Part shown: piece by piece, positions 12,355-34,378 of the stretch
Position numbering within the stretch: the first letter of the stretch is position 1
How the letters are laid out: each line of letters starts with the position of its first letter
Assembly: GCA_044892525.1 (NCBI GenBank)
Contig: CM097887.1
Span: 80,826,397 to 80,890,396, forward strand
Source of the DNA: Schmidtea polychroa
Lineage: Eukaryota
DNA length: 64,000 nt
Direction of reading: 5' to 3'
Notes under the pieces: generated by a model
The model's input: the letters and a program-made list of their open reading frames with translations, nothing else
Databases searched by the model: none
Told to the model about the DNA's origin: nothing
Translations under genes and position numbers: made by a program

Positions 12355-15300
12355 TGTTGGGCTGAGCCGAAGGGTAGCTGAGAAATCAGGTTAAACTTAA
12401 CTAAAGTAAAATAAAAAATAAAATAAATAGATTGACGAATAAAATAGAATAGAATATAAGAAAAAGCAATAATTAGAAAATAAGAATTAAAACAAAAAAT
12501 ATAAAAATAAGAACAATTAAAATAGGACAATAGAATGACAAAAAATAACGTAAAATGTAGTAGATAATAAGGAAATTAAGGAAAATAAATAAAAACACAA
12601 TAAAAATAAAGAAAATAGGAAGAAATAACTCAAAAACAAGAAAAATAAATTAAATTAATAAAATTAAGCGGTACTCAATTCTGATTGGTCCGCATAAACG
12701 AAAAATATCTATATAAGTAAACAGCAAACTCACTATAGTCAATGTTAAAACCAAACCAATTACAGGTAAGAAATAGTATTAAGTAATGTAAAATGTTAAA
12801 ACCAAACCAATTACAGTTACAGGTACTCGACAATCCAGAAAACCGACCGACACTCAGACGACTATTAGGAACAGTTCTATTGACAATTCATTCATATAAC
12901 CGATTTGATTAGTGTATATTTCGGCTCAGCCTTTGGAATCACAGAATTTTTCAAACAATAAGTAAGGATGTATTGCTATTGTAAAATTTGTTTTTTCAAG
13001 GATTAAATATTTTATTATATTAACGTAACTTTTGAATAAAAACTTCTCCATTCGATCTCAATTTTTTAATGATAATATAGTTCGTAAATTAATTTAAAGG
13101 TTAATGATATATGAATGTTTATGATATGTTTTGTCGTCGAACGTATTGATTGTGATAAAATTATTTTTGAGAAACGTGGAGTTGAGGAGACCCACGCCAT
13201 GGTGTGAGGAGCCTTCGGGAGCTCAGCCGGCGGGTGTGGATCTCTTCAATCACGCAGCTGACGTGGGCCGGAATGTGGGGGTTTCCTCACGGGTCCGTCG
13301 CTGAAGGAAGTAAAATGCTGCAAGCACGAGTTTAAAGTATAGAGGAATGCATTCAAATATTGAAAAGTAGAGCAATCTTAATTGAAAATGACTGAGGTGG
13401 CTACAAATTCTTATTAGACATCACACTCTGAAATTTCATCTGACATCAGAAATCGTATTCTTGCCTCAACTGACACTCTATCTTCTAGTGGCAAAATACT
13501 CTTCTATCAAAACTCACGTCAATAGAGAAACTGAGTACTAATATGTTCATTAAATGTAAAATCATAATATAGGAAGCATAAACGAAGATTTATTCAACAA
13601 AAATTTTAGTACTAATATATTTTTCAACAAACCCTTTAATTTTTTCATTTCTCCTGAAAATCCACAATAGCGGCAACATGAAGTTCTTTCTATAAATGAC
13701 TCTTTCGACCAATATAGGTGGAACTCTTTTGAATGAGTTGCTGTAAATATTCCACGAAATCACAACATCCAAATTGAAAACCGGAGGAAACTGCACATCA
13801 TGAGAATAAATTCCAACGTTCATGCTCGATGAGAACTAATCATAGGTAGCATATTGAATAACTGAAATAAATCCAACTCGCGGTATGAGACGATCAGCTG
13901 CAACCCGTTAACGTAGATAATGAGAGAGCAGACGAGACAAGTCACACGCATTGCTACACATAAATACACACTTACATATGCCGCATGCATTATTTTCCCA
14001 GTCAGCTAATGACGATGAGAACAAAAATTGAAGTACACGCACATGACATAATTATCTCCGATCGATATCTAACTTTCAGATTCATGTTGTTAATGAGTTC
14101 TACGAGTGAGCTATGCATTACCGGATGACTGTTATCAATTAGCTAGATTTCATAGATTAATTGCACCAGTAAATTCCATAACAAAAATGAATAGATCGAT
14201 TTTCAGGATAGGAATAAAAATCTAATCATACTCGAATCCTTAAAAATCTAATGGTAGCACAGTGATTGAATATGTTTTTTCGATTTTCATATACCAATAT
14301 GAATTACGATTTGAGGTAATTAATTTAAGGAGCATTCCCGCGGCACTAGAGAACTTTGTTTTTACGTTTTTTAAAGATAAATATCTGTATTCGAAAAGTT
14401 ATATGTAAAAATGAATATTAATTATTTAATTATGCAAACATTCTAATGTTTCCTAAACAATTTCTACGAAACCGATAATTCTAACGTTCACTGAGTCAAT
14501 ACATTTGCGAGTCATCTTTCACCTAAATATTTGAGAATCTCAGATAACAATAGGTAATGGATATTCTAAGTATAATCATAAACTTTTGGCAAAGTATTAA
14601 TCAGATGTTAATTTCTCTTGCAACCCCAAATAGACATCCAAGAATTCACTGAATGCAATTATAAAACACTATTTCTAACGGAACCATATCATTGACCTTT
14701 TATCCATTTTACTTAATTTTTCGAAATTAATAAATGATCATGTCCCATGCTGGTTTAGTAGAAATCGCTGATCTTAATTCTTATTCTCATTGTTTTTTCT
14801 TTGTTACAGTTATCAAAAATGTTGCCAAGCTCGAGGCCGTCGCTCAAACCCTGTTTCTCCTGTGCCGACAAAAACACCGTAATCCGAGAATTACAGGCCC
14901 AGATCGGTCGATATAAAAAGAAGATCGACGATCTGGAAGGTACATGGTTTAGCCCAGTACAAATGAAGGAGGTGCAAAAGAAATTGTACCGCAGCGAGCA
15001 TTGTCGCGATGCTTTGATAAGCGAAAGTAGAGCTCAGCGTAGCCTAATCAAAGAGCAGTCCGAAGCTCTACATAAAGTTTACGTTCAAGCCGCGACAACC
15101 CCGAAGATCGTTAGTATCCCGATTAAAGAAGCGGACAATATCTTCCCCGTCCACCATGAACCTTCATTTAGTTCACCACCCTTATCAAAAAGATCTTGTC
15201 GTGAATGCGTGGAGGCCGACCTCTCCCCCAGGCCAACGGACGTACCTACTCCCGGCACCGGCAAGGTATTGCCATCAACCACGACGTCCTCAGAAATCTT

Positions 15301-16103
15301 GTCTGCCAACCCTTCGAAACCTAAACGTCGCCAATTATCCAGAGCGGAGCGTAAGAAGCGTCAACGCGAACGAGCAATCGTCAAACAACGAGAACTATCT
15401 TCCAACCACCCAAGTACTTCGAATGACCCCCCCGTAACGATCGATCTAACCGTAGGGATCCCAGGGCGAATAATATCTGCCGCTGGCGTGACTTGGGAGG
15501 AGAATGCCTCCGAGGTTTTTGATCTAGATGAACTATTGGCGGATGCAGAATGGGAGAAGTGAGAATCGCAACACAATACAACCGTGCAGAGTGTTAATGG
15601 ACAAATAAACTATCATGACTCCTTTTCCTCTTAATCCATTTTCCACTAAGTGTACTCGTTATATAGTGCCATAATTATATAGTGTATTATGATAATAGAA
15701 TAGAGAAATTTGTGGGTTATTTCTTGTTGTTGTTTTGATTTAAATAGTTGTTGTAAAGGTTTAGAGTAGTGTTCACAAAGTGATCCATAAAGCGAGAGTA
15801 AATTTTGAGTCCGAGAGGCAATAGTCAATTTTGTGTCAAATTATGGGACAGGGTAGAGAGAGAATCTGATGAGGTAAACAGACGTAAGTCCTTCCATCGG
15901 CAGTCAGCAAGGGAAGTCGAGGCCTCAGTAAGGAGTAGGGGCACATTTCCAACGTGAAGCAATTCGCGGGTGCTATGTTGGAGAGTAAGTTGTGCGGGGT
16001 CCTGCTCCGGGTTGACACGGGCGTATGTAGCGTGATGATATGGGCACGCATCCCCTAGACAAAGATGTAGATTGAGCAGAGTCAACCGAGCGCTACCCCA
16101 GCA
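12355..16103 (+). repeat. 5' LTR (3,749 bp)
   Basis: Direct repeat of 38828-42618. By eye I counted 7 substitutions and 3 indels (11, 32 and 1 nt). AATAAA at 15604. Confidence 0.97.
14734..15562 (+). CDS. LTR-encoded ORF (~258 aa if a 52-nt intron 14758-14809 is spliced); putative nuclear regulatory protein
   Basis: 253-codon open frame intact in both LTRs. The upstream ATG joins in phase 0 through GTAGAA...CTGAT..polypyrimidine..CAG. Contains CxxC plus coiled coil, a basic KRRQ..RKKRQRER tract and an acidic-aromatic C-terminus. Confidence 0.65.
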
Positions 16104-16110
16104 TAATCTT

Positions 16111-16129
16111 TGGGGGCTCAGCCAGGATT
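16111..16129 (+). promoter_or_regulatory. Primer-binding site, tRNA-Pro-like
   Basis: TGGGGGCTCAGCCAGGATT versus the tRNA-Pro complement TGGGGGCTCGTCCGGGATT (3 mismatches), 7 nt downstream of the 5' LTR. Confidence 0.75.
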
Positions 16130-16393
16130 AATATGGAATTTCTGTCGAATAATGTGAATTCACCGGGATTATCGATTTCAATTAGTGGGCGAATGCAAAT
16201 TGACTAATGCCTATCGAATCTTATTATAAATCACGATTAGAAAATAATAGAATTAAAGATATAAATAAAGTAAATAATAGGGAAATAGGATAAAAATAAA
16301 ATAAATTATAACGATTTAAAAAGAAAAATGTTTGATGAAACAACCATTAATTAGCTGTATATTATTAAAATTTTTTTTCTTTTCTCAATAGAC

Positions 16394-16879
16394 ATGACGG
16401 AATTCGCAGAACAGATGCAACAATTAATTAATTTCATTAATATAGAAAACGACCCTATTAAAACACTCATACAAAAAAGAAAGCGAATCAACAGCATTCT
16501 ACTCCAAGCAATCGGACACACACCAGTCGTACCTAATCACGTGTTATTGGCCGCAGGTTTAAGCCACTCAGATGAAAAGATAAATCACGAAACAGTATAT
16601 CAATGGTACCTAAAACGACTAAAAAACCCGGCCCTAAATCTAGAATACGAGCGACTAAAAGATCAACTACATACAATATCAGAGGCAATCGAACAAAAGA
16701 TACAAGAGAAACTCACCAAATTGCGAACCTGTCTGTCTTGCAATCTTCGCCCTATACGCATACTATTCTTACCTTGTGGACACCTCAGTCATTGTGAAGA
16801 ATGAGTGAAAGATCTGAAACGATGTACAATATGTAAAAATGGGATAAAAGAATCCCATATGGTTTATTACGGTGATTAA
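16394..16879 (+). pseudogene. IAP-type C-terminal RING E3 ligase ORF without BIR; premature TGA at a Zn-ligand Cys codon
   Basis: CLSC..ILFLPCGHLSHCEE*VKDLKRCTICKNGIKESHMVYY continues in frame past the stop and aligns with the cIAP/XIAP pattern CxxC..FxPCGHxxxCxxC..CPIC. Confidence 0.85.
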
Positions 16880-17435
16880 AACGACTAACCAGATGCAGTG
16901 ACGTATATGCGCACTAAATTGATAAAAGACCTTTGAATACGAACATATGTACTTTTAAGTGTGAAGTAACTTTAATGTTTAATTTTAGTCTCAGGATAAA
17001 TAAAAATTTTTTTTGTTATGAATTAGATATTTTATCTCTTTTAATTACATCTTTGTTTATGAGATCGAATGGAGAAGAATAAAACTAACGTGGAATTAGT
17101 CCCAATATAGGATATAAGAGTACAAACCGAGCCACCTTCGGGCGGTACGTTCTATCATAAGACAAACCAATTGGGAGGGGATAACTGATCAACCCAAGTA
17201 AGAAGCGTAGGGCGGGGTACCATCGCAAATGATGAGAAGTTTCTACGACATGACTGATCACCATGCCAATGTAGAAATGGATCATCGCGATCGTCGTGCG
17301 TTTTGAGCAAGGGGGGAAAGGGGAAACACTCTCAAGCGGTAAAGATTAAGTCGACAAATTAAAAGTAGACAGAGAAAATGGTAATCTTGAGTAAAAGAGG
17401 AAAAGAGAAGCAGAAGCATGCAAAGTGAGGAATAT

Positions 17436-17962
17436 TAAAGCCGAGCTGTTAAGTAGTCCAGCCGGTCAAGGAAAATGAAAACTGAGCTGTGAAAAGTCCA
17501 GCCAGTTCGGAGATATTAAGATCGAGTTGTTGAATAGTCCAACCGATCAGAAGGAAGAAGATTGAGCTGTTGAATAGTGCCAGCCAGTCGTAAGATCGAG
17601 TTGTTGAATAGTCCAACCGATCAGAAGGAAGAAGATTGAGCTGTTGAATAGTGCCAGCCAGTCGTAAGATCGAGTTGTTGAATAGTCCAACCGATCAGAA
17701 GAAAGAAGATTGAGCTGTTGAATAGTGCCAGCCAGTCGTAAGATCGAGTTGTTGAATAGTCCAACCGATCAGAAGGAAGAAGATTGAGCTGTTGAATAGT
17801 GCCAGCCAGTCGTAAGATCGAGTTGTTGAATAGTCCAACCGATCAGCAGGAAGAAGATTGAGCTGTTGAATAGTGCCAGCCAGTCGTAAGATCGAGTTGT
17901 TGAATAGTCCAACCGGTCAGAAGGAAGAAGATTGAGCTGTTGAATAGTGCCAGCCAGTCGTA
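17436..17962 (+). repeat. Tandem array of six 74-bp higher-order units plus degenerate leading subunits
   Basis: ATCGAG recurs at 17521, 17595, 17669, 17743, 17817 and 17891. Each unit holds two GAGYTGTTGAATAGT subrepeats. Confidence 0.95.
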
Positions 17963-19326
17963 AAGGCCTAGAAAAGCGAGAAATAGCAGTTAAGCTGCAA
18001 TGAGATAATATTTAAATTAATAGCGAAATGGAATATTAAAGCTAGCTAGAAACAAATTGAATGTAATTACGAAATTTGAGTTTAGAGAGGAAATAAACGA
18101 GCTCGTGGAAAAGATGATGGATTATAGTGAAAAAGGGAGGGGAAAAAGGAAATGAATTAAAGAGATAATGGATAATAAAGAATAGGTGAAATGATGATAA
18201 TGAGTAGAAGAGGAAAGTAACTAACTAATTAAAGGGATCCCAGTGAAGTAGAGAAACTCTACGGAATATTTTTTTTGGTTAAACCGGGAAAATGCATTTT
18301 TATTGGTTCCAGAGTAGAACCGAGTGGGATAATAGTAAATATGAAAAGTAAAATAGCGGCAACAGCGCAAAAGGAATAAGAAAACGAAGGGGGGTAATAA
18401 GCAGAGACCGACAACGACCTATTTATACTATAATTGATAAAGATAGATAATTATTTTGACTTTATAGATAATTGTTACTACCCCATATAGATAATTTAAA
18501 ATCGACGAAAAATACGGGCTGATGGGAAATTATAACCCGCGGAAAAGAGTTCACAAAAGATAGGGAAAAACAAACAGAAACCTAAAAGGTGTCTGTGTTT
18601 GAATGTTGCAGAAAGAATGATGAAGTCGTGTAAGCAGATGCAACACGAGATCATTTTTTCATTTTAGATATCAAACCAAGCCAGCCAATCAAGCCAATCC
18701 AGAACCTGCACAAAAGGAATTCGAGGAAATCGACAATCGACCAAGAATAAATCCATTCAGAACCCGCACCGAGAAACACAGCAACCGGAAGACTCCAGAA
18801 CGGAAGAAGATACAGATAGCGACATCTCCAACTTCGAACGAATCACCGATATATTCAACCTCATAGTATTAGCAGCCATCTGTCAAGGACTAGTAAATCT
18901 CCTCAGAATCGCAGTAGCAGACTCATACCGAACAATTTACGAAGGAAACTTCATCAGAACCCAATCCACCCAATTCAGTAGCCGCTAATTACAAGGAAGC
19001 GTAAGAAAAGAATCACGGATAAACCTCATCTCAGATCATCAAGTAAGTCAGGCGACGTATTATTTTCAGGAGACGAATTACAACAACTCAAAAGAGGACG
19101 ATCTATTAAACATCAAAGAGGAATATCACAAGGAGCAAGAAGAACCAATCAAGTACCCATATTTGACCAAGAAAATCTCGGATACACCCCTAGTCGATCT
19201 CGAAGCAGAGAAAGTCTGTCCGATATCACTAATAGTTTAGCAACGTCAACCGAAGAATTATCAGCCCAAAGTTTAGTCACATCGTTAGACAATTTAAAAG
19301 AAACAGACGAATCTAGAACACCAATC

Positions 19327-20841
19327 ATGACGAATGTCGTAAAAACCGACGAGTATAAAGAGAAGTTTAGAGGAGAACCGTTCAATGGAAATGCAAACAA
19401 GTTAGCAACGTTTATAACTAATTTTGAAGTTTATATCACGGTGTGTGGATGGACACCCGAAGCAATTAGCAAAAGGATGCCGTTGTTTTTGTGCGATAGC
19501 GCATTAGAAGTATATTTAGAAGCTAAAGAGAGAGATACGAAATTAGAGAAGTGGGAAGATATCAAAACATTCTTGAAGAAAACCTTCGGAGCCAGTAAGC
19601 CAATCAACCAGGCGTTGGGCGAACTAGCAAATAGGAAACAAAGAGCAAACGAATCGATAACATTATATGCCAGTGAATTACGGAGATTAGCGAAGAAAGC
19701 AATGAATGGAAAATTACCCGAGGAAAATCTGATCGGCTATTTCATAGAGGGATTACGCCGAGAAGAGGTAAGAGCCTCAGTAGGCTGTCAAATGTGCAAA
19801 ACGTTAGAGGAAGCCATAGACTGGGCTACAAGATGCGAGCTCCACCTTCCAGTTCAAATGAATATTATGCAAGAGGATGGGAGGATAGCGACAGCAATAG
19901 CGAAAGCAGATACCGGAGATAACAACAATCAGGAACCGAAAATGAACCAATTTATACCAGGAGCGCATCAAATTTTCAAACCACCACAAGGACGATCAAA
20001 TGGGAAAAATGGTAATCGTAACAACCTGAATAACGAGAACAACTTTAATAATCGACGAAGTTTGAACGATAACAAGCAATGCCGAACATGCGGTAAACCA
20101 GGACACTGGGACAGAGATTGTTATAGAAATGCAAATTGTAATCGTTGCGGACGGCGTGGACATACGGAAAATATATGCCAATTGAGAGGTTGTTTTAACT
20201 GTGGTCAGCCAGGTCACATCTCCAGAGACTGCCGAGAAAGGGGCCAACAACAACGACCGCCACAGCGAAATACTAATTATGTATCGAATCCGCAACGACA
20301 AAGTAACCCTGGTGAAAGAAAACAAATGAACGTTATGCAGGAAATCTCACAAATGAAACAGATGATGCAACAAATGATGAGACCAAGACAAGAACCAGCA
20401 CCACATCAAACCCAGAATATACGTATGATGAGGAGTACCGAAAATCTCAACAGTTATGAAGTACATCAACATGTACAAGAATGGCAAAGACTACAGGCCG
20501 AGGAAGAGAGGATAAAACAAGAACGCAACCAACAACGACAAGAACAACCATTGCGAATAAATATGATGAAGTTAGTAAAAGACATGAAAAGCCAGTACTG
20601 TTACAATTACGGGAAAAACCCAAGGGTAGTACCCATGACTGAACCAGAAAAGGTAAAAGAAACAACAACGGAAATGAAAACAGGGAATTCAACCACGATC
20701 TTAAAAGGGAACCAGAGAATTCAGAAAATATTCTGGAAAAAGATAAAAGATAAAATAGAAAAGAAACATGAAGAAACGGAAATAAGAATAAAAGAGGAAA
20801 ACAACCAAAACAAGGAGCAAATCAGTCAGCTAAACCACTAA
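19327..20841 (+). CDS. gag: Gag: capsid domain plus three CCHC zinc knuckles
   Basis: Retrotransposon gag-like N-terminus (PFNG..FITNFE..W..MPLFL..ALEVY). Knuckles CRTCGKPGHWDRDC, CNRCGRRGHTENIC and CFNCGQPGHISRDC. Confidence 0.95.
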   Translation: MTNVVKTDEYKEKFRGEPFNGNANKLATFITNFEVYITVCGWTPEAISKRMPLFLCDSALEVYLEAKERDTKLEKWEDIKTFLKKTFGASKPINQALGELANRKQRANESITLYASELRRLAKKAMNGKLPEENLIGYFIEGLRREEVRASVGCQMCKTLEEAIDWATRCELHLPVQMNIMQEDGRIATAIAKADTGDNNNQEPKMNQFIPGAHQIFKPPQGRSNGKNGNRNNLNNENNFNNRRSLNDNKQCRTCGKPGHWDRDCYRNANCNRCGRRGHTENICQLRGCFNCGQPGHISRDCRERGQQQRPPQRNTNYVSNPQRQSNPGERKQMNVMQEISQMKQMMQQMMRPRQEPAPHQTQNIRMMRSTENLNSYEVHQHVQEWQRLQAEEERIKQERNQQRQEQPLRINMMKLVKDMKSQYCYNYGKNPRVVPMTEPEKVKETTTEMKTGNSTTILKGNQRIQKIFWKKIKDKIEKKHEETEIRIKEENNQNKEQISQLNH

Positions 20842-22107
20842 ATGCTACAAGAATTGGAATCAGAAGAAACAACGATATTTGAAAGAAGGAAACTAAAGCG
20901 AGTACCACGGATGAGGAATCTGCGAATCAACATGATGAAAAGGACAGAAGATGCGACATTGTCAGACGAAGAGGAAGACTATGTGAGTAGTTTGGGTGGA
21001 GAAATACTACAGCTAAACGAAACTAGCGAACCTCCAAAGGGGGAAATCAAAGAGGAAGAAAGCGAAAGCGAGATAACCAGTGAAAGTGAAGACGAGGATA
21101 TCGAATTAAAGTTGAGGAAAGTGAGGGAGGAAGCGATAAAACAAGTAGCTGAAATACTCCCGGTGGTAGTGAGAAACCAAGAGTTCATCGATGTAATACC
21201 ATTCAGGCGATTCGTACAAAAAGTGATGAAATTGGAAAGAAACGAGAAAGATTTAATACCAAGCGAAGAAAAGTTGATAATAAAAAAGTATATGGAAAAA
21301 ATGAAGCAGGTCGATACCACTCGATATGTAATAAAAATCGGAACGAGTAAAGGACTTGAAAGGATATGGATTAAAAACACAGTCACCGACGAACTTTTCG
21401 ATTGGATACGAGAGCACTTAGGTAGCTCGAGGAAAAAGGAGTACCTATACCAATATCAAGGAGAGCAAGTTAAACCAGATATGCACTTAGTAGACGCACT
21501 GATCTGGCCAGGAGAAACGCAAATACTAAAGTTGCACAAAGAAAAACAACCAGCCAATCTTTACGATTGGGCTAAAGATGCCAAGGCAGAATATGATTTC
21601 AATATCAAATTGAAATTAGAACAAATAAAACAATGTACTCTGAGACGAAACCTGGACAAGCTGATCAAGCAAATTCAAGAACAAGTAGAAGACAACTGGG
21701 ATTTACTCATTACCGGACGAGCCCCAGCCATATACGAACTAATGAGCCGATTGCGAGATACAGAATTGCTCCGAATGAGTGATTGGAGAACCATAAATTT
21801 GATTCACAAATATGGAAGGTTAAAAGAAACCCAGCCACAGAAGTTAGAAATAACCATATGGTTACCGAACGAAGAGAAACGACGAATAAAAATGAGCAAT
21901 CAGAGTACAGTGGATGATTTGGTATCAAAGATAAACCAAGAGATAACGGAAAAGGTACGTAGCGAAAGTAGTGATGGTATGGTAGATGATGTAGTCATGA
22001 TGTACGATAAAATAATATTACGAGCGGAGGACGACACCTCGTTGAGCGAAATGGGTATGTGGGACGATCATCAGATAATCAGGATAGTACCAATGGATGA
22101 ATTTTGA
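20842..22107 (+). CDS. In-frame continuation of gag after a single TAA; two predicted ubiquitin/SUMO-like beta-grasp domains
   Basis: RYVIKIGTSKG..YLYQYQGEQVKPDMHLVDALIWPGETQILKL (21322-21540) and LEITIWLPNEEKRRIKMSNQSTVDDLVSKI..MMYDKIILR..TSLSEMGMWDDHQIIRIV (21838-22090). Confidence 0.6.
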   Translation: MLQELESEETTIFERRKLKRVPRMRNLRINMMKRTEDATLSDEEEDYVSSLGGEILQLNETSEPPKGEIKEEESESEITSESEDEDIELKLRKVREEAIKQVAEILPVVVRNQEFIDVIPFRRFVQKVMKLERNEKDLIPSEEKLIIKKYMEKMKQVDTTRYVIKIGTSKGLERIWIKNTVTDELFDWIREHLGSSRKKEYLYQYQGEQVKPDMHLVDALIWPGETQILKLHKEKQPANLYDWAKDAKAEYDFNIKLKLEQIKQCTLRRNLDKLIKQIQEQVEDNWDLLITGRAPAIYELMSRLRDTELLRMSDWRTINLIHKYGRLKETQPQKLEITIWLPNEEKRRIKMSNQSTVDDLVSKINQEITEKVRSESSDGMVDDVVMMYDKIILRAEDDTSLSEMGMWDDHQIIRIVPMDEF

Positions 22108-22146
22108 ACAAGAGACGTAACGTATCAAAAAGAAATACGAGACCGG

Positions 22147-23523
22147 ATGAAAACGTTATATCAAAAATCTACAGAAATAATTGAAATTCACCAACAATGG
22201 TTAAAAGAAAAGGAACTACAAGGAAAAATCACGAAACTAAGTACCAGATCCTGCAGACGAACCCCATGGGAAAGAGAGTGGAATACAGAAAATAAGGAAT
22301 GGGAAATCCGGAAAGGAATCTTCGTAGAAACAGACATTGGTGAGACAGAAAGTGAATCGGAGGAAGGAGAAGAGGAACCTCCAGAATATGAAGAGGAAGC
22401 AAGGGGACAGACATCAGATGACGAGAGCGAGACGGATGTCACATCGGAAAGCGAAAATGAAGCGAGACATATTCATGCAATGAGGAAAAAGGAACGTGAA
22501 TATGCCGATATGGACGGCGAGGAAGCGATAGAAGCAAGAGAACGAGAAGAGAAGGAAAGATATAAACAGTTAGGCGATATCTTAGCAATGGGAGCGAAAA
22601 ATCAAAAACGCCAAGTAATAGCATTGGCTAACATCATCCTAAAGACATCAGAGAATATCCACAATCTGAGAGAAATGGCGAAAACAATAGAGGAATACCG
22701 GAATATAATGAATGGTATCCAGAACAGCTAGAACAAATTACTCGAAAATGGAGAAATCAGGAATGAGCACAAGACACCCAGGAGAGGTATCACATCCGAA
22801 TCAAGTATCCGGACAAGAGCATCGAAGAACTAGAGGTGCATCCAACAACAAAGGTTAGAGAATTAAAAAAAGAAATTAGCATATGAAACTCCATTCCATC
22901 TGCAACTATTCGGAAAATCACTAGACGATAATGCAGACGTCGGAATAACACCCATGAGATTGGAAGAGACGAATGTGTTAACAATGGCGGAAACGTTGGG
23001 AAAACCGTTGAAAAGGAAAAGCAAAAATAATAAACCAACTAAAGGCAGTTTGAGTACTCCAAGTCCGAACAAAGCACCAAGTAAATCTAATGAAACCGAA
23101 GAAGTTGAAGAGATAATCCTGGAAGATAGCGACGATGAACCAGGAGAAAGATCACCGCTATTAGTGAGATGGCCGACAGGAGCCGAAATGTGGACTAACA
23201 ACCAACCATCAACAAGTTATCAACAACCAACAAAATTGAACATCGAAGAAATCATCGACAATACTACGGAAACCGAAACGGATGAACAATTCAAGAAGCA
23301 AAGAGAACCAACAAGAATAACACCAGAAGGGCAAACTGATAAAATAATAGATGAATGGAATGAGTGGCTGAGAAATAACGATAGCTCATTACCCAGAACG
23401 AATAACGAAAGAAATCCGAATTACGAAAATACCAGAGAAGCCGGAGCGATGATGGAAAACGGGCAAAAGGAAGACCTAAGAAACAAGGAGAAAAGTCTGA
23501 GTTCAAAACCAAGGAACAATTAA
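22147..23523 (+). pseudogene. Disrupted polyprotein segment: acidic region, a third ubiquitin-like domain (22785-22985, frameshifted in an A7 run) and a low-complexity linker
   Basis: 22147 is in frame with the previous ORF. Removing one A at ~22870 gives YHIRIKYPDKSIEELEVHPTTKVRELKKKLAYETPFHLQLFGKSLDDNADVGITPMRLEETNVLTM, which is ubiquitin-like. Confidence 0.6.
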
Positions 23524-23546
23524 AGCAAGAACAAGGGGAAGTTCGA

Positions 23547-26500
23547 TTGGAAAAGTTAGATAAAATAGTATGGGATCTAAAAGAAGCTCAACCAACGATC
23601 GAAAGAGGAGAAAAATGGATACGAGAATTGATCAAAGATATGTTAATAATAACAAACCCACAACTTAGACGTTTGTGGCAACGGAAAGTAGCGAGTGTGG
23701 AAGCTAGACAATTATGGCACATCGTATCAAGGATAATCCCAAAGTTAATCAAAGAGAAAACGAAAACCACCAAAACGGATTGGGATGAAACAAAGAGAGT
23801 GATTGAACAGCTCACGACAAATGCAAATGATGACGAACATCATCTAGTGGTAATCACTTATTTGATGTATAATTTGATGGGATTAGCTGCAAGGAAAATA
23901 CCTAATAAACAGTTCGCAAATCACGTAGAAATGACAGTGTCAGTCATAGAAAACACTATTGAACCACATATTATCCGTGCCGGAGGATGGAAAAGACTTA
24001 TACAAGCGCCACGAAAAAACGAACAGGAAAGGTCAATGCAAGTTAGATTGAAGAAGTTGCTGAACGAGCTTGAATGGGAATTACCAATGAAAGATCCAGC
24101 CAGTAGAAAAGCGTCAATAAATTCGTTAATGATGACTATGATGATATGGATGTTGTGCACAAGTGGGGCAACGAGTTTTACCATCTACGATTGTGATAAT
24201 ATGATAATGAGAGATAAATACTCATTGAGAGATATAGAAGAATGCAGACAAGCATCACCCAACAAATTGGACATAGTAAAAACAAAAGTTACCTACCATG
24301 TATATCAAGAATCAGATTTCATCAGAACGCAAGCAAGAGAATGCGTTGTATCAAAAAAGGTACTCGCGTATTATTGCGGGCAATATTCGTATTCAACTCT
24401 CATACTACCCGGTCTAGATAAAGAAATCGTATCAATACAAAGAGAGGACTGTAAAGAGCTATTTAGAACCGGAGCGCTAAAAATGCATAACGGAGTGACG
24501 ATACACGGACAAACCGGAATGATAAAAACCGAAAGTGTTTATGTATCCGGAAAGGTGAAATCATCAGATGGGTCATGTAACGGAGGTACGTATACAATCC
24601 GAGGGGAGGTAATATCGGGAGTAGTAGTGATCGAGTCCTATACGGTTGAATTAAAAGAATACGAAGCGCAATTTGACGCAAATAATTACCAAATGAAAAC
24701 CAACCCGGCATGTAGGGCTACAGAAAACGTATGCAAGACAGGAGTATCAACTATAATCTATGAAGCTAACACGCAAAAATGCCGACTCCAATTGTTAAAA
24801 AGTGCTTTGTTTAATGAAGTAAAAGGGGAAATTTATGAGAACGAAAATGACGAGGATGGAAACGAAAGAGTGAGAATGCGAAATGGAAAACCAATGCCAC
24901 CATCTCCCAGAGAAAAAAGACTCTCAACGCAGAAAACACCAACAACACTAATCACCGACGATCCAGATCTAGGTATGAGATTTATCAAAGAGAAAGAAAC
25001 CACCAAATGCGACAGTATAGTATATAAAACCAATTACGCGGGTATCTATATGTCGAGACAAATAATCGATAGAGCAGTGGGAAAGATAGCAACGGAGGAC
25101 GTAAAACTATACTTATATGCAAATAATAAAATGGACTTTCTGTTTCATCGCGGACAGACGACGTTGCAAAAAGTATATTACGATCTTATACAAAACGATT
25201 GTTCGTTGAATAAAGAAATACTGAAAACAAAGCTGGCTATTGCGATAACGCACCCAGATAACACGATGCCATCACTCCCATTACCTGATGGACATTTTGG
25301 TAGAATGGTGGGAGAAGTGATGTACACATACCAGTGTACCAAGACGTATGCACGAATGCCCGAAAAATCCTCACTACCCGAAAAGAAATGTGCAAACGAA
25401 TTAGAGATTCGTTATAAAGGACAAAATCGATTCGTCCAACCAGTCACCAGAATTACGAACCCAGTAGGCTTCTACCCAAATCTATTTAACTGTTCTAATG
25501 CGTACGGACCATTGTATGAAAGACCCGATGGGAAATGGATAATGTTACCAGTAAAAACCATAACAGAGGAGCCCAAGAAATTTGGATTAATAGAACTCGC
25601 CACGGAACAAGTCTTCAAACCCATTGACGTATCAAACGGGGGTATGTATGCCCCAGAAGATTTAGAAATAGCTCGGCTTAACGTATTATTCCCCGCAAGG
25701 CGAGAATCTATATTGTCAAACATGGTCACAATAACTGGGGGAACGAATTACCAATCAGGCCCAAACTATGAACTACTGCTGTCACCAGACCATTTCCAAC
25801 AAGCAACCTCAAATATGATGAAAGCAATGTGGGGAAGATTCTTAGTTTTTGGACAAATGATGGCCGGAATATTGGGGATCATACTCATAATTCAGATAGT
25901 CAGAGTAATACTAACACAAATGTTAGCTTGTTTTGATATATACAAGAGAGAAAAGAAAGTAAATTGGAAAATGATAGTAGGATTTCTACCATTCCTAGCT
26001 AAAACCATGGTTTTACATGGTCACTCAAAAGACATTCATCGGATTAAGCGATTGATCAAAATACTAACAAAGATTAAAGGAACCGACGAGGAAGTAGGCA
26101 GACGATTCCGGAAAGTAATGTACGATGAAGCAACAAGACGACAACTGAAAAAGAATAAGCCAAAATTTTTGGACCGATTCAGAAGTCAATCATCTAACAG
26201 CGATAGTGACGACGATGATAACGGGAACGATAAATGTCTATATCCAAACAGAAACCCAAACGAAAAACCAATGGAAACAGCACCATATTGGGAAAAGGAA
26301 AAGACAAACACCTGGATCGCCAATGGAAGCTATATACCACCGGATATCGTGGGACCACAAGCAGCTTTGACCATGACACAAAATATGTATCCGCAATTAC
26401 CGAGTCAACCCGGTATGCATTATATGCCAACGCGACGTACCAAAAGCGTAGATCAAGCAGATGACGTACGAACAATAGCAGCAATGAATTCACCTGGAGG

Positions 26501-26993
26501 TCCAGCAGTGACAGTCATGATTCAAATCAATGGTAAAGAAACCAATGCTATGATAGACACAGGAGCTAATGTATCAGCGATAGCGATTAATCAAATTCCC
26601 AGTAAGCACTGGAAAGATATCGAATCAACCACAATCCACATCATAGCATGTAGTAAAGAAACAGTGGACGTGGTCGGAAGATGGTGGACTACATTGAGAT
26701 ACCAGGACAACGAAATTGAAACGTATTTGGCAGTAATACCAAAACTTAGCGTACCATGCATAATCGGAACGGATTTGATCCCAGAATTATTAAAAGAAGT
26801 GGTAATTGACTTAACAACCATGTGCCTAAAAGACAGAACAGGCAGAATATGCAAAATGAATGCCATAATCAGATGTCCAGAGAAAATTGTAGTACCAGCA
26901 AAATCGCAGATGATTTGTCAAATAAAAGTGGATACGGGTATGGAAGGAGAAGTTATCTTTGAGCCAAGCAAATCATTCGAAAAGCGACGATAG
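23547..26993 (+). CDS. env: Polyprotein segment: Bcl-2-like domain, internal signal peptide, chuvirus/gB-type envelope glycoprotein with TM, then aspartic protease
   Basis: BH2-like IEPHIIRAGGWKRL; hydrophobic LMMTMMIWMLCTSGATS; FTIYDC..YSLRDIEEC..C..YYCG Cys pattern; TM FLVFGQMMAGILGIILIIQIV; protease MIDTGANVSAI..CIIGTD. Confidence 0.8.
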   Translation: MEKLDKIVWDLKEAQPTIERGEKWIRELIKDMLIITNPQLRRLWQRKVASVEARQLWHIVSRIIPKLIKEKTKTTKTDWDETKRVIEQLTTNANDDEHHLVVITYLMYNLMGLAARKIPNKQFANHVEMTVSVIENTIEPHIIRAGGWKRLIQAPRKNEQERSMQVRLKKLLNELEWELPMKDPASRKASINSLMMTMMIWMLCTSGATSFTIYDCDNMIMRDKYSLRDIEECRQASPNKLDIVKTKVTYHVYQESDFIRTQARECVVSKKVLAYYCGQYSYSTLILPGLDKEIVSIQREDCKELFRTGALKMHNGVTIHGQTGMIKTESVYVSGKVKSSDGSCNGGTYTIRGEVISGVVVIESYTVELKEYEAQFDANNYQMKTNPACRATENVCKTGVSTIIYEANTQKCRLQLLKSALFNEVKGEIYENENDEDGNERVRMRNGKPMPPSPREKRLSTQKTPTTLITDDPDLGMRFIKEKETTKCDSIVYKTNYAGIYMSRQIIDRAVGKIATEDVKLYLYANNKMDFLFHRGQTTLQKVYYDLIQNDCSLNKEILKTKLAIAITHPDNTMPSLPLPDGHFGRMVGEVMYTYQCTKTYARMPEKSSLPEKKCANELEIRYKGQNRFVQPVTRITNPVGFYPNLFNCSNAYGPLYERPDGKWIMLPVKTITEEPKKFGLIELATEQVFKPIDVSNGGMYAPEDLEIARLNVLFPARRESILSNMVTITGGTNYQSGPNYELLLSPDHFQQATSNMMKAMWGRFLVFGQMMAGILGIILIIQIVRVILTQMLACFDIYKREKKVNWKMIVGFLPFLAKTMVLHGHSKDIHRIKRLIKILTKIKGTDEEVGRRFRKVMYDEATRRQLKKNKPKFLDRFRSQSSNSDSDDDDNGNDKCLYPNRNPNEKPMETAPYWEKEKTNTWIANGSYIPPDIVGPQAALTMTQNMYPQLPSQPGMHYMPTRRTKSVDQADDVRTIAAMNSPGGPAVTVMIQINGKETNAMIDTGANVSAIAINQIPSKHWKDIESTTIHIIACSKETVDVVGRWWTTLRYQDNEIETYLAVIPKLSVPCIIGTDLIPELLKEVVIDLTTMCLKDRTGRICKMNAIIRCPEKIVVPAKSQMICQIKVDTGMEGEVIFEPSKSFEKRR

Positions 26994-29900
26994 TTACCCC
27001 TCGCCAGAGAAATAATAACAATAAACCCAGAAGGAGTGATACCGATCAACATCACAAATTTTGAAGAGGAAGACAAAATCATCTACGAAAATGAAAGATT
27101 GGGAAAATTAACTCCAATGATCAATATCGAATTACCAAAAGTGACCAACGAGATGACCAAAGACGACGAATTATGGACAATCGACAGTACATTGTTAACG
27201 GATGCTGAAAGGAGAAAATTGCACCGATTATTAGTAGAATATAAAGATATATTCGCCATCTCAGATTTAGATTTGGGTACATGCGATCAGTGCTCGAAGT
27301 GGAACAAATTATGTGCCGGGATAGGCATGCTGTGGCACCCGGGATTCCAGGCTTTTATGCAGAAATTTTCAGTTGGGGGTGTTGCAAAACTTTGGGGGGT
27401 GTCCAACAATTTGGGGGGGGGGGTGTCCACTCATTTAATCATAAGTTTCAGGGGGTGTACCTGTTTTAATGTGGGGGGTGTCAAACAATTTTGGGGGGTG
27501 GGTAAATCCCTGCGGGATTCTCATTTTTAACCAAGCAAAATGACAGAGATTTTTTGCATGTGTAAATTTGTCTGATAAATAATCGGGGTCACAGTATAAA
27601 TAACTCAACAAACAACTTGCTGGTTTAACTAAAATAAATAAGAGAATATACCTACCTATCCATTACTGCTGCTTGGGAAATTCTTAATTGAATAGAGAAT
27701 AGAGAATAAAGAATATATATATACATACATATATGGATGTACTATGTGTGACCTTAATTGCAGTATTTGTGTGCCTATAAAATGAAATAAGTACCGGGAA
27801 ATATGAAATGAAGTGCCGGGATGCAATTCCGCCTACATAATCAATGCCGGGATAATATCCCGGCTATCCCGCCTCACTTCGAGCACTGCATGCGATGTTA
27901 CCCTACATGCAATACCACTCATAGACGAAACCCCAATTGCATTGAGACCATACAAGCTAGCAGAAATGCAAAAAGAAATAGCCGAAGCAGAAGTACAAAA
28001 AATGTTAGACGCAAAAGTGATCGAACCAAGTTGCTCACCTTGGCAATTCCCAGTGGTCATGGTGAAAAAGAAAGATGGCACCCAACGATTCTGTATCGAT
28101 TATCGAAAGTTAAACGCAGTAACCAAGAGAGATACCTATCCATTGCCGGACATCAATGAAATGTTACTCATGTTGCAAGGGGCAGCATATTTTACTTCTT
28201 TAGATTTAAAAAGTGGATACTGGCAGATTAAAGTCAAAGATGAGGACAAAGAGAAAACAGCTTTCACGTTGGGACGAGATCTATATCAGTTCAGAAAAAT
28301 GCCATTCGGACTGACCAACGCACCAGCATCATTTCAAAGGTGTATGAACTTTGTCACTCATGGAATCAAACAATGTATGGTATATATTGATGATTTGTTA
28401 ATCTATTCAGCGACATTCGAACAACATCTGGAGGATATCCGAAATGTATTTATTCGATTAAGACAATGGAAACTCAAGCTCAAACCCTCAAAATGCGATT
28501 GGGCAAAGGAAAAAGTCACGTTTTTGGGACACATAGTGTCAGCTAAAGGAAAGGAGCCAGATCCAAGAAACATTGAGAAAATAAAAACATGTCCAGCACC
28601 GAAAACTGTCACCCAAGTTCAGGAATTTCTAGGATTATGCGGATACTATCGCAAATTTATCAAAGATTATGCAGGAATTGCAAAACCAATCCAGGAATTA
28701 GTAAAGAAGGATATTTCGTTCATTTGGGGGAAGGAACAACAAGAGGCGTTTGAAACGCTGAGAGACAAACTAATCGAAGCACCTATCCTCGTACACCCAG
28801 ATTTCAAGAAGCCATTTCTATTGGCAACGGATGCAAGCGGGTACGCGGCAGGCGCGATTCTGGGACAATTAGACGATGAAGGAAAAGAGAGAGTAATCGG
28901 GTATTACAGTCGAACATTCAAAAAGCACGAGAAGAACTATTCGGTAACAGAACGAGAAGCATTGGCTATAATACAAGCTATCAAACACTTCCGATATTTA
29001 CTATGGGGACATGAGATATGTATAACCACAGATCACCAACCATTAATGTGGTTAGGGCAACATAAAGAAGCGTCCAGTAGACTGATGAGATGGGCCATGC
29101 AATTGCAAGAATACTCCCCATTTTTAAAATTCAAAGCGGGAAGAGCAAATGCCAACGCCGATTGTATGTCAAGATTTATTTTTCCAGATTTGGTGGATTC
29201 AGAAATGCAACGCATATGCTTAATAGTAGCGGAAGATTTAGATTTCTGTCAATTGCGAAAGGACCAACAAGAGGACGCAGAATTAAAACAAATTATCGAT
29301 TATGTAAAAACCGGAAAGACGGAGGTATATGCGAAAGATCAAAAATTAAAAGAACATATGGATAAACACCGACACCGATATATTATAGAGAAAGATTGGT
29401 TGCTGATAATGGATGGGGAAAAACGATTAATGTGTATACCGGAAAACCGACGAAAAGAGTTACTAACGCAATATCACGATGGGAGATTGGGAGGACATAT
29501 GTCATCAAAAAAAGACGTTAGCAAGAATGAAACAGAAATATTTTTGGCCAACCCTAACGGAAGACGTAACCGAATGGGTGAAAAACTGCCTAACCTGTGC
29601 AACAAGGAAAAACGCTGGATCGAAATGGAAAGCACCTTTGACGCCAATGCCGGTACCAATAGAGCCGATGACAATGATATCAATGGACATAGTTGGTTAT
29701 TACCGGAATCGGATCGAGGAAACGTTTATATTTTAGTGATTACAGACTTTCTCACGAAATTTCCAGAAGCATTCGCGATGCCAGACCAAAAAGCTAAAAC
29801 AATCGCAAAAATCTTAGTCGAAGAGATATGTTGCCGTTACGGGACACCGAAGCAAATCTTGACTGATCAAGGAACTAATTTCATGAGTGAGATAATGAGC

Positions 29901-30236
29901 GAAGTAACAAACTATTTCAAAATCGCAAAACTAAGAACATCTCCATATCACCCTCAAACCAATGGGATGACGGAAAGATTTAATGGAACACTTATACAAA
30001 TGTTATCAAACTACGTCGATCGTCACCAACGAGATTGGGATGAATACATAAATCTATGTCTTATGGCTTACAGAATGTCAATTCATGCATCAACGAAAAT
30101 GAGCCCATTTAAATTAATGTACGGGAGAGAGTGCAACTTGCCAATGGACCTGGAATACCAACCACCGATATCGCAATACATGGAGATAGATGATTATGTT
30201 TCGAAATTCAAAGAAAGAATGCAGGAGATTTGGTAA
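26994..30236 (+). pseudogene. pol: pol (RT, RNase H, integrase core), in frame with the protease across a TAG; disrupted by a MITE and two compensating frameshifts
   Basis: RFCIDYRKLN, LDLKSGYWQI, MPFGLTNAP, YIDD; TDASG, EREALA, TDHQPL; integrase TDQGTNF, YHPQTNGMTERFN. MITE removal gives DLGTCDVTLHAIPL in frame. The zinc-finger CxxC sits in the alternative frame (29479-29736). Confidence 0.97.
27288..27888. mobile_element. 601-bp hAT-type MITE inserted in pol
   Basis: Perfect 14-bp TIR CAGTGCTCGAAGTG. 8-bp TSD CATGCGAT (27280-27287, 27889-27896). Subterminal GCCGGGAT repeats. Confidence 0.95.
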
Positions 30237-33200
30237 ACTGCGGGATTAAATATCAAGTTCTACCAAGAAAGTTATAAAGATTTACACGATCGAAAGAAAA
30301 ACGTGAAGCAACATACGTTTCAAACAGGCGATTGGGTGATGATCGAGACCCCAGAATTAATTCCCGGAACCACAAGAAAGTTACAACGGAACGGAAAAGG
30401 GCCATATGAGATCGTGTTCGTAGGCGAAACCAATGTAAGAGTGAAATTGGTAAATAATCCATTCACCAGGCCAATATACGTAAACGTGGCACGATGCAAA
30501 TCAATTCCAAAAACAGCCACCAGTCAACCAGAAGGCCGTACATTAACCACACGTTCGCAAACCTACAGAATGAACATGATGCAACAACTCGCAGAACCTA
30601 TCACTGGACGATTGGGCATACAACCATCGGAAGCTGAAAAAATCGTACGAGAGGTAAAGATAAAATTACCCGGATGGGCAAAAGATCGATTAGATTTCGA
30701 AATATTAGGAGGATTATTGACGATGATCGAAAACTATGCAAACAGAGAGAGGACACATCCGTTATTGCGAGTAGTTAAAAGTCAATGGCCAATATTATTT
30801 ACAATAACAGATCATTATGGAGACACACCATTACACAAACTCATGAAAGTAGGTAACAACGAGCAAATACTAGAAACAATAGAAGCATTTCACGACTGCA
30901 AGCGATCAACAGAACAAGAAAACAACCAAGGCTACACACCATTAATGATAGCAGCAAACAGAGGCAAAATAAAAGACATTATAACCGCATTACTTGATAC
31001 TGGATCAAAAATAACTACACAAGATCACGAGCGGAAAAACGCACTACATCATGCTATCGAAGGGAAAAGTACCGAGGCGTTCACGTCGTTGATGGAACTA
31101 CTATCATATGAGGACAATCAAGAAGTCGGAAACATGTATGATGGATTATTAACAGCGATCAAAGAGAAACTGACAACAATTACCGGAGTATTAATCACTT
31201 GGAGAAACCCAATTAAAAATAATTATATGATCAACGTAAACGAAGCATTCACGAGAGGAGAGAACACGCTTATGAGAGAAGCTATGAAAGGACATCATTT
31301 ATTCGAAATCCCGAATCAATTACTAGAACGAGGAATAACATTCACAAATCATAAGGATGAGCAGTTATTAAAAAAGCGAATTGACACATTCGAAAAATCA
31401 ATATTCCAATTCATTACTCAGGTACGAAATAAATATTGGGAAACGGTAAGTGTGTTATACATGATGGACACGATGAACAACATCCGCGAGAATTACCTAG
31501 ATATTATTCAAATACTTACCGCAGAGGAACGAATCAATAATCCAACCGGAAAGAAAATGAAAATAAGGCATGGGAAATCAAGAGAACCAAAGTCGCAAAC
31601 GAACCAAACGATCGCAAATAAAGTCATCGAAACAAATTCAATGAGTGTAGATCAAAGAGCAATAATATGCAAAGCGAAAGAAGTGTTCTTTGAGGAAATG
31701 CTAGAGCTCTCAGATGAAATAATAAAAACCGTGCATACATATGCAAGAGATCAAACAACGAATTTGGACATCGGTAAAATCAAAACCTTCTTGCCCCCAG
31801 CATTTACGATGGTAACGAAGGATTCCAGAACACCACTACAACAGGCAATATTAGCAGCGAAAGAAAATAGAGCAATAACGATCATGAGAATCCTTAGGGA
31901 TATGGGCGAGGAAACCAACACGAAAAATGAACAAGGCGAAACCGCCATGATGTATGCAGCTATAACGAAAATACACCCAAAAACACTCCACATACTACAT
32001 CAATCAGGATCGAGACTAGACGAAAAGTCAAACGAAGGGAACTCCACTATGGACTGGGCAACCATACAGCCTAATTTAGAAATGATCAGATTTATTTGCA
32101 AAAATGCGACAAGAGAAGAAGTTGAAAATATATGCAAAAACACAGCTCAATTTCAATGGAATACGGTACGGAAAAATCTAGAAGCAATGAAATTATTATT
32201 AACATGGAGAGTACCACAAAATAATAAATATGCGATAAATGTAAACGAATTCTACGAAAACGGAGAAAACGCGATGGTAAAGAATACATTAACTAAAGGG
32301 GGGACACCAAAAATTATTTTAATAGTACTAAACAGAGAAGACCTCAAATTCACGCAAAATCAGAACGAGCAACAACGAATTGGGAAACATCGTCGTATTC
32401 AAATGAGAGAATTAGTCAAAGAATGGAATAGAAAGAGACATGCTGCGACGGGTAGAAAAGAGTTTGAATTCGAAGCAAAGTTAGCAAGGAACAGAGTGTT
32501 AACAGCATATCGCAGATTATTGAACGATATAAATGTCGAGGACGACATTTTAAACGACAGCGGGGGAGATAAACACGATGACAATGACGGAAAAGGCCGA
32601 AAAGAGGATAAAGGGAAAAGAGAACCGGAAGAGGATAAACCGGAAAACAAGGATTCGGGTACGAGAAGAGAGGGAAACAGCCCGGGAACCAAGACCAAAG
32701 AGGAGGAAAAACCGAATAATGGAAAACAGAGGGTATGCCTACCTTTCACTAACAAAGAAATAGAAACAAATATGATCTTAATGATAATCATGCTAACCAT
32801 GATAGAGTTAGTAACAGCTCATGGAGGGACGAGAACGATAAAAGAAACCAAAGAAGCGGAGAATCAAGATAGCAAAGAGGAAGAACTAAAACAAGAAAAG
32901 AAAAAGCAAGCACAAGAGCAGCAGTGGGATTTAAAGGAAGAATGGGGCCTAAAGGAAAGGTGCATACTAGGAAGATGTATGTCTAGAGCGTATCAGAGAT
33001 TAGTACTGATAAATGAGGACACAGAACCGATAACAGAAGTAAGAATACAAGAAGCATACCGAAATCGAGACGGCAAGAGAATAACGAACGTTAAAGGAAA
33101 AGAGGTGCACCTAGGAAAAGGAGGTGAAGTAGTAATAACGCAGCTCCAACCAAGAAAAGAACACAAAGTCTGTATTTCAAGATTAGGACCAGGTGAGAGA

Positions 33201-34293: not shown

Positions 34294-34378
34294 ACCAAAC
34301 CTAGCTTAAAATGTAAATAATTGTAAATAAAATATCGAACCTGTATCGATAAGAACTATATGTATATATAATTATAGA

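Follow-up and report, generated by a model that had tools for sequence, protein, structure and literature searches.

A conserved gene within the long terminal repeat of a giant Burro-like element of Schmidtea polychroa, and its possible role in regulating genomic RNA

Burro-type elements, the largest long terminal repeat (LTR) retroelements described in animals, are suspected of being proviruses (PMC6431247). As described in that paper, Burro/GYPSM1 elements exceed 30 kb, have an interior of up to 25 kb and encode gag with CCHC knuckles, ubiquitin-like and Bcl-2-like domains, a mononegavirus-like env between gag and pol, a protease followed by reverse transcriptase, then RNase H and then integrase (PR-RT-RH-IN), ankyrins and MATH/TRAF; a gene within the LTR is not mentioned in its text. 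We have analysed a window of 64,000 nucleotides from Schmidtea polychroa (GenBank assembly GCA_044892525.1, contig CM097887.1, positions 80,826,397 to 80,890,396 of the forward strand; coordinates below count from the first letter of this window) which contains an element of the same overall content and length, and we report here that the open reading frame (ORF) within its LTRs is a real, conserved LTR-encoded gene. No account of a gene inside a Burro LTR was found in the literature, judged mostly from titles and the starts of abstracts, and text from PMC13238120, PMC11410931, bioRxiv 10.64898/2025.12.11.693146 and PMC6109357 was likewise silent on it; LTR ORFs may already have been drawn in the Burro figures and in the Repbase GYPSM1 entry. 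The carrier type, ORFs that overlap LTRs and retroviral regulators are all known already.

Several described systems invite comparison. Protein-coding sequence within an LTR is found in MMTV, where the sag ORF lies in or overlaps U3, and in HIV, and sag and nef are membrane or trafficking immune modulators, whereas the LTR protein described here has nuclear features and no transmembrane segment evident in its model. The overlap of nef with the LTR is described in PMC3511177. The Rev-type proteins (HIV Rev, HTLV Rex, HERV-K Rec and MMTV Rem; PMC3856414, PMC2661877) resemble it in having an arginine-rich motif (by sequence), predicted oligomerisation, a likely spliced early mRNA, low A bias and candidate structured RNA nearby, and MMTV RmRE is described as spanning the env-3' LTR junction. 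The LTR protein differs from these in that homology does not extend beyond a low-complexity motif, in lacking a canonical nuclear export signal (NES), in its long, predicted parallel coiled coil and in being encoded entirely inside the LTR, by a gene that has a poly(A) signal of its own. CERV of the C. elegans element Cer1 is likewise an accessory nuclear protein of an invertebrate Gypsy element, with a spliced mRNA, a helical leucine-zipper region and predicted multimers (PMC10309623). As there described, however, CERV shares exons with gag and has an ORF situated between the 3' LTR and pol, and has H, M and G domains; by this description it is set apart from the present gene, which lies wholly in the LTR and has no globular domain in its model. 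Finally, foamy virus Tas/Bel-1 (PMC12282171) and HTLV Tax are brought to mind by a possible second promoter and by a basic nuclear localisation signal (NLS) followed by an acidic C-terminal tail, but no recognisable DNA-binding or zinc domain is present here, and no Tas or Tax Pfam family matched the query or eight aligned family members at E 5. In foamy viruses tas lies between env and the LTR.

The LTR reading frame and its relatives

The frame stays open from 14762 to 15562, giving 266 aa from stop to stop, and its twin at 41235-42035 differs by one residue. A first-pass annotation of this DNA had reported a 253-codon frame in both LTRs; this corresponds to 14804-15562 including the stop codon (250 codons plus stop if counted from the splice acceptor) and is indeed open in both, but its intactness is uninformative on selection because the LTRs are near-identical copies. 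The pair aligns at 98.7% with 7 substitutions and a 42-nt net indel, both members starting with TG and ending with CA, and within the ORF there is one non-synonymous change against about 1.4 expected by length. We also rejected the contrast between an intact LTR ORF and a broken interior as evidence of selection, because at a density of about one lesion per 3 kb fewer than one would be predicted in 741 nt. A stop-free frame of at least 247 codons was seen in none of 1000 Markov resamples of the LTR (maximum 228) and none of 1000 of the ORF itself (maximum 227). The ORF is, as had been claimed, richer in C than its surroundings (0.27 versus 0.13-0.18 in adjacent non-coding stretches), and an overlapping 129-aa frame at 15048-15437 is probably a shadow frame.

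At least 13 diverged relatives were found, seven by an exhaustive single-sequence search (E 5.5e-8 to 1.2e-4) and six more by profile, with the best 8000 candidates scored in each; a word-index search with the single protein gave no matches among 821 candidates. Twelve are single gene models that join the segment to some unrelated host gene – SNF transporter, glycine cleavage P, L21, CRAL-TRIO, subtilase, actin, PTP, sybindin, LSM14, MCM6, M1 peptidase and an ankyrin protein – and the thirteenth is a 94-aa fragment. Fusion to such assorted host genes is the pattern expected of a repeat scattered through introns, for example as solo LTRs, and within the window all 13 match the LTR ORF only. The first seven relatives share 40-50% identity with the query over residues 40-89, and all 13 share 21-40% over about 100 core residues; 19 core positions are invariant or nearly so across the family. 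The relatives fall into two subgroups, and the branch leading to the query is long. We take this depth of conservation as the main evidence for selection on the LTR gene.

The likely product has 247 aa. The in-frame ATG at 14819, which the earlier gene model did not mention, has A at -3, lies 9 nt past the acceptor and 40 residues before the GTW motif, and a Met is found 39-48 residues ahead of GTW in 10 of the 11 relatives that retain this motif. In three chimeric models, each with a different host gene upstream, entry is via the same four residues before the Met, which suggests a conserved acceptor there. Acceptor 14809 itself is one of five acceptors with a polypyrimidine tract counted along 26.5 kb of plus strand and ranks 25th of 2117 AG sites (by a crude 6-site matrix). 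The first-pass annotation had begun the gene at ATG 14734 and joined it through a 52-nt intron (14758-14809). The join is in frame, but the intron is unproven and its donor at 14758 (TTA/GTAGAA) is weak, ranking 113th of 185 GT sites in the LTR on a rough matrix built from only seven host donors; the alternative donor 14753 ranks 94th. Host introns were correctly described as 45-51 nt long in five of the six cases delimited by hand in tetraspanin-like genes, the sixth having 1907 nt; the exons used for this splice-site comparison, named by eye, are at 950-3310, 49180-49620 and 54270-54740. If left unspliced, ATG 14734/14740 opens an out-of-frame 60-aa upstream ORF that overlaps the start of the LTR gene, and if spliced, the exon from ATG 14734 would add 11 residues. 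We conclude that several 5' ends are possible, of which this exon is one but does not have the best support.

The predicted protein and what its motifs suggest

Pfam contains no family matching the query. In the ESM Atlas the best score was 0.84, to unnamed clusters, and is a lead only; Foldseek returned no match at E 0.001 in BFVD or PDB, and VIA-align reached at best Z 5.9, all matches being generic coiled coils with none at Z >=8 (effective coverage residues 7-99). By these searches the protein family is one without a Pfam, PDB or Atlas identity and was previously unnamed.

An AlphaFold2 model built on an 8-sequence alignment has helices at 18-40 and 46-93 (pLDDT 76-97 over 21-90) and at 175-195; the remainder, including a helix at 236-244, is of low confidence, pTM is 0.28 and there is no globular domain. 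When two copies of residues 15-115 were modelled, a parallel in-register coiled-coil dimer was predicted with a score of 0.58, compared with 0.00 for the best of three controls, with contact agreement between runs of at least 72% and pLDDT of at least 79, the alignment not being used. This mark was reached by 21 of 30 solved microbial homo-pairs and none of 23 single chains, and among eukaryotes by 17 of 29 pairs (7 of 16 from animals, and one of seven without an older solved relative) and none of 30 single chains. Self-association of residues 15-115 is thus supported by modelling, although a generic coiled coil may pass by likeness. The conserved residues R58 and R71 lie outside the predicted dimer contacts. 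It had been claimed that the protein contains a CxxC-coiled coil: the coiled coil is conserved and predicted, but CxxC is present in none of the 13 relatives, and a zinc-finger reading of it was rejected. The basic NLS-like tract (167-185) and acidic-aromatic tail that had also been described are both present and recur in relatives.

The arginine-rich tract (at least 7 R/K in 17 residues) is found in 8 of the 13 relatives, the query having 10 R/K in 17, and the other five models end in, stop before or skip this region. The patterns used for this tract and for the two motifs described below were written after inspection, and most of the other models either stop short of these features or depart from the segment before them. 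When the family profile was compared with PDB sequences, the top match was the HIV-1 Rev basic motif (E 0.075), followed by the N-terminal arginine-rich arms of nodavirus capsids (E 0.12-0.16), which bind RNA. The nodavirus matches raise the possibility that the protein is no regulator, but serves the particle as a structural RNA-binding protein or an aid to packaging, or else is a captured ORF that is decaying without present function, for which the uninformative intactness in two near-identical LTRs would leave room. We regard this as very improbable: 19 core positions kept at 21-40% identity, along with the spacing of the start and the order of motifs, argue for long-term purifying selection, and the NLS-like, SUMO-interacting motif (SIM)-like and acidic motifs point to the nucleus.

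Downstream of the arginine-rich tract, the query and 5 of 13 relatives have an IxIDL-type motif that, although the linkers vary, keeps an offset of 140-143 from the core; it resembles both VIDLT, the core of PIAS SIMb, and VDLT in RNF4 (PMC3901395). The near-constant offset would suit an anti-silencing or host-modulating accessory protein, that is a dimeric adaptor whose SIM-like motif binds SUMOylated chromatin or repressors of the PIWI-interacting RNA (piRNA) pathway and shields the LTR, or which acts with the TRAF, RING, ankyrin and Bcl-2-like products of the element on host signalling. Burro elements are described as repressed by nuclear PIWI in planarians (PMC8532177), and the present element bears several ubiquitin- and apoptosis-related domains. 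However, the motif is short, its pattern is post hoc and three of the five matches depart from the VIDLT core, while SIMs also occur in transcription and export factors. As such a role would in addition leave the arginine-rich tract and the RNA islands described below unexplained, we consider it improbable.

An acidic-aromatic motif is present in 5 of 13 relatives, in three of them at the query's offset, and the last 39 residues are the most acidic part of the protein, with a net charge of -8 and 7 W/F/Y/L. In the subgroup P0009, P0013, P0014 and P0015 this motif is followed by an extra K/R cluster and then V-D/N-I-D, a second NLS and SIM-like site that is absent from the query. An acidic tail of this kind bears on a close rival explanation, possible though doubtful, namely that the protein is an activator of LTR transcription, either Tas/Tax-like on DNA or Tat-like via nascent RNA. 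It would first be made from the candidate proximal promoter P2 (Table 1), dimerise and use the tail as an activation domain to switch on the candidate main promoter P1. The domain order, a structured N-terminal part, basic NLS and acidic C-terminal tail, resembles that of foamy virus Tas, in which the DNA-binding domain is reported at 80-210 and the activation domain at 250-290, with an internal promoter of its own besides (PMC12282171), and it is because of this order and the possible second promoter that we keep the activator explanation at the level stated. Also in its favour are the two TATA/initiator (Inr)-like sites in the LTR, TGACG and a kB-like 10-mer within a GC-rich island, the recurrence of the tail motif and the position of R58 and R71.

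Other features weigh against an activator. Pfam reveals no recognisable DNA-binding domain and CxxC is not conserved. The basic tract is parted from the coiled coil by a Pro/Ser/Thr linker of variable length, unlike bZIP geometry. In two relatives the acidic-aromatic motif precedes the SIM-like motif and is not terminal, and a search of PDB sequences with the last 41 residues gave no matches at E 10, although the tail may bear some likeness to the VP16 activation motif. The first-pass annotation had favoured a Tas/Tax-like regulator that is also expressible from solo LTRs. An LTR-encoded, probably nuclear regulator is supported, since the family is conserved, the basic and acidic-aromatic motifs recur and the LTR holds a TATA/Inr-like site and a poly(A) signal, and expression from solo LTRs is retained as a possibility; the activator role, however, is not singled out, because no DNA-binding or zinc module is conserved and the arginine-rich tract fits a Rev-like role at least as well.

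Expression signals, RNA structure and a Rev-like reading

The best donor in the LTR, at 12766, lies 25 nt past the TATA/Inr-like start at 12741, and further acceptors are found at 16391 and 18667. A 25-nt direct repeat occupies 12741-12822, just past the P1 start, each copy beginning with ATG and being followed by a donor (12766, 12823), with both donors in phase with the LTR ORF. The AATAAA that had been noted after the stop is at 15604 and is the only one between the ORF stop and the LTR end.

The LTR ORF differs from the rest of the element in codon bias. Third-position A is 0.29, whereas the 10 internal frames measured, the RING and TRAF ORFs among them, all lie at 0.42-0.47 (binomial P 3e-6 against 0.43), and A at fourfold sites is 0.28 compared with 0.49-0.56. 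For HIV-1, a lower A content than that of pol is likewise described for tat, rev and nef, which are early genes (PMC3511177).

Two structured RNA islands were found in the LTR (Table 1). For island 1, z is -3.2, a value reached by none of 200 shuffles; for the best window of island 2, z is -4.4 when compared with synonymous permutations, none of 60 reaching it. In the LTR and leader three of 51 windows reached z <= -3.5 on the plus strand, falling in the two islands, and none of 66 internal windows reached z -3; the LTR 3' end at 42300-42618 is not unusually structured (z -1.45, 10 of 100 shuffles). Island 1 would be intronic in an mRNA spliced from 12766 to 14809 and retained in unspliced RNA, which is the arrangement described for the HIV Rev response element, lost on splicing and kept unspliced (PMC2661877).

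Our leading interpretation, which we hold tentatively and a little short of evenly balanced belief, is that the product is a Rev/Rex/CERV-like post-transcriptional regulator of unspliced genomic RNA, non-homologous to those proteins. A short spliced mRNA, initiated at P1 and using donor 12766, or initiated at P2, would end at the LTR poly(A) signal, and since this mRNA is contained in the LTR, full copies and solo LTRs could both supply the protein. The protein is predicted to dimerise via its N-terminal coiled coil; the arginine-rich tract would direct it to the nucleus and bind structured element RNA, for which the two islands are candidates; and the acidic-aromatic and SIM-like motifs would recruit host factors. 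The unspliced, A-rich genomic RNA of about 27-29 kb could thereby evade splicing, early polyadenylation or nuclear retention and be exported or read through, which would amount to an early-to-late switch in which the protein also feeds back negatively on the spliced mRNA that encodes it. These functional steps are all deduced from the ORF, its conservation and the sequence signals, which are what we observe. CERV is reported to be needed for export, but not transcription, of Cer1 genomic RNA (PMC10309623), a precedent which indicates that an invertebrate Gypsy element can use a Rev-like regulator.

A number of points weigh against a Rev-like role. Rev-like proteins are described as bearing CRM1-dependent NESs (PMC3856414), whereas a scan with one pattern for the classical leucine-rich NES found none in the query and none common to the five relatives scanned; the missing NES is the main weakness of the model. 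Pfam REV matches only one of the eight aligned members (E 7.6e-4, 19.1 bits against a curated cut-off of 22), and the tract of the query is the least Rev-like in the family. By sequence, the Rev and nodavirus matches are compositional, reflecting arginine richness, and do not indicate homology; those to Rev are not significant. The acidic-aromatic and SIM-like motifs suit transcriptional roles equally. The HIV LTR is itself described as A-poor (PMC3511177), and a Rev-like gene cannot be told from a Tat/Tas-like one by its low A content. The islands were selected from 51 windows on two strands. The promoter statistics are also modest: two TATA/Inr pairs with an offset of 31 in the LTR have P of about 0.01 in resamples, with the offset chosen partly post hoc, and about 0.08 if offsets of 29-32 are allowed, and the 6 matches in the window as a whole, 4 of them independent, are not unusual against an expectation of 3.0. 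In addition, we infer rather than observe that the relatives are located in LTRs. It should be noted that the Rev-like, activator and anti-silencing roles are not mutually exclusive.

The carrier element and what the gene would mean

Judged by its architecture, which includes an env between gag and pol, the carrier is a Burro-like giant Gypsy element. A GC content of about 29% and short introns, taken with this architecture, would fit a planarian host. It totals more than 30 kb with an interior of 22.7 kb, has the Gypsy order PR-RT-RH-IN with ankyrin and MATH/TRAF, and is flanked by a 4-bp target-site duplication, CTGT. The env is PF24664 (E 3e-69; Atlas 0.96), followed by RVP in the same frame, and is mononegavirus-like, lying between gag/Bcl-2 and the protease as in Burro, although the Bcl-2 match upstream of it is weak (E 0.021, under the cut-off). 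The ubiquitin-like match is to PI3K_rbd (E 1e-4). Two differences from the described elements were noted. No BIR domain was matched among the 12 interior frames of at least 150 aa scanned, nor in the RING ORF upstream of gag, whereas Burro1/GYPSM1 has BIR, and it is for this reason that we file the element as Burro-like rather than Burro1. In addition, TRAF is here a complete separate ORF downstream of the polyprotein. The features of the element are collected in Table 1.

Table 1. Features of the element and of the gene in its LTR, in window coordinates
Feature	Position	Strand	Remarks
Whole Burro-like Ty3/Gypsy element	12355..42618	+	30,264 bp, TG...CA ends, interior of copy broken
5' LTR housing the gene	12355..16103	+	3749 bp
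Candidate main promoter P1	12684..12771	+	ATTGG box, TATA 12710, Inr-like start 12741, donor CAG/GTAAGA at 12766
RNA island 1, GC-rich, structured	13155..13345	+	long stem, cUUCGg loop; also TGACG and kB-like 10-mer
Candidate proximal promoter P2	14660..14696	+	TATAAAA, Inr-like TCA 31 nt downstream, start ~14691; modest statistics
Upstream ATGs 14734, 14740, 14747 and weak donors 14753, 14758	14734..14763	+	
Polypyrimidine tract and splice acceptor	14780..14809	+	ATG 14819 lies 9 nt past it
LTR gene, most likely coding sequence	14819..15562	+	247 aa from ATG 14819; frame open from 14762
RNA island 2, structured	14867..15110	+	in 5' part of ORF, just past acceptor
Conserved core, codons 18-113	14870..15157	+	helices 18-40, 46-93, GTW-x-x-P kink, then N-x-x-P-x-x-H motif
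Basic arginine-rich tract, codons 167-185	15317..15373	+	NLS / candidate RNA-binding motif; predicted helix 175-195
VTIDLT SIM-like motif, codons 206-211	15434..15451	+	similar motifs, same offset, 5/13 relatives
Acidic-aromatic tail, codons 226-247	15494..15559	+	predicted helix 236-244, low confidence
Poly(A) signal AATAAA	15604..15609	+	then U-rich stretch
Strong donor-like sites 15874, 15884, 15985	15874..15990	+	downstream of poly(A) signal
Polyprotein region	18982..33773	+	gag/CCHC, ubiquitin-like, Bcl-2-like, Monjiviricetes-type fusion glycoprotein, PR, RT, RNase H, IN, ankyrins
3' accessory ORFs	34331..38491	+	complete RING-to-MATH TRAF-like ORF and three orphan ORFs
3' LTR	38828..42618	+	3791 bp
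Same ORF, 3' LTR	41292..42035	+	one amino-acid difference

In this copy the polyprotein is disrupted by in-frame stops (for example at 20841, 22107, 22731, 26993 and 30236) and frame changes. A MITE-like insertion (miniature inverted-repeat transposable element) of about 600 bp with 14-bp terminal inverted repeats lies between protease and RT at 27288-27888, its first part being without A bias. Upstream of gag, the ORF at 16394-16880 starts 2 nt past a strong acceptor and ends in a C3HC4 RING (zf-C3HC4_3, E 2.8e-5) with a presumably IAP-like look that is broken by a stop at 16802-16804. The TRAF-like ORF at 34331-35767 is complete, with RING, zinc fingers, coiled coil and MATH; TRAF/MATH genes are reported to be expanded in planarians (PMC6109357), and part of this expansion could be element-borne. 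Further accessory ORFs within 33935-38491 have no confident Pfam match; AT-rich spacers with runs of TATATA lie between them, and polypyrimidine acceptors are lacking.

With regard to the ends of the element, the first 390 nt of the LTR (12355-12740) are 56% A, extending the strand bias of the interior, which ends abruptly at P1, and the 42-nt net indel between the LTRs (15939 / 42412-42455) corresponds to a predicted hairpin lost from the 5' LTR. A primer-binding-like sequence at 16104-16128 starts 7 nt past the 5' LTR and, with mismatches, resembles what we take to be a tRNA-Pro site, and no clear polypurine tract was seen before the 3' LTR (38795-38827). The leader holds a tandem array of a 74-nt unit at 17443-18034; tandem repeats are likewise marked in the Burro figure legend (PMC6431247). 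An Rfam scan of 12000-43000 gave no matches, and a hammerhead-like CTGATGA at about 15870 was dropped on that basis. The element is inserted in a type-B DNA polymerase pseudogene (PF03175) on the minus strand, split into 11427-12354 and 42619-43650, which has a Polinton/Maverick-like look, with similar fragments seen by eye nearby at 7578-8617, 9994-10368 and 44092-44472. Further along, at 44814-46814, a 787-nt inverted repeat (partly N runs) surrounds a GIY-YIG-like ORF at 45500-46135 that is Penelope-like by eye.

The making and export of an A-rich unspliced RNA of about 30 kb is a matter not addressed in the Burro literature covered, and a conserved LTR-encoded family offers a testable handle on it in flatworms, which are tractable to RNA interference. 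As a practical by-product, a set of chimeric gene models found in public protein collections is accounted for by this family. In a wider picture, which taken whole we think unlikely, Burro-type elements would be invertebrate complex retroviruses whose LTR is a complete regulatory gene, with two promoters, an intron holding a response element, an ORF and a poly(A) site; its dimeric RNA-binding product would toggle the 5' LTR between its own short mRNA and read-through of the 29-kb genome, and solo LTRs would form a bank of trans-acting regulators for full-length and defective copies. If the LTR gene does encode such a regulator, solo LTRs would be protein-coding, and regulation of the Rev/Tas type, known from the complex retroviruses of vertebrates and from nematode CERV, would extend to another invertebrate lineage by independent invention. 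The present invertebrate element may be regulated like a complex retrovirus.

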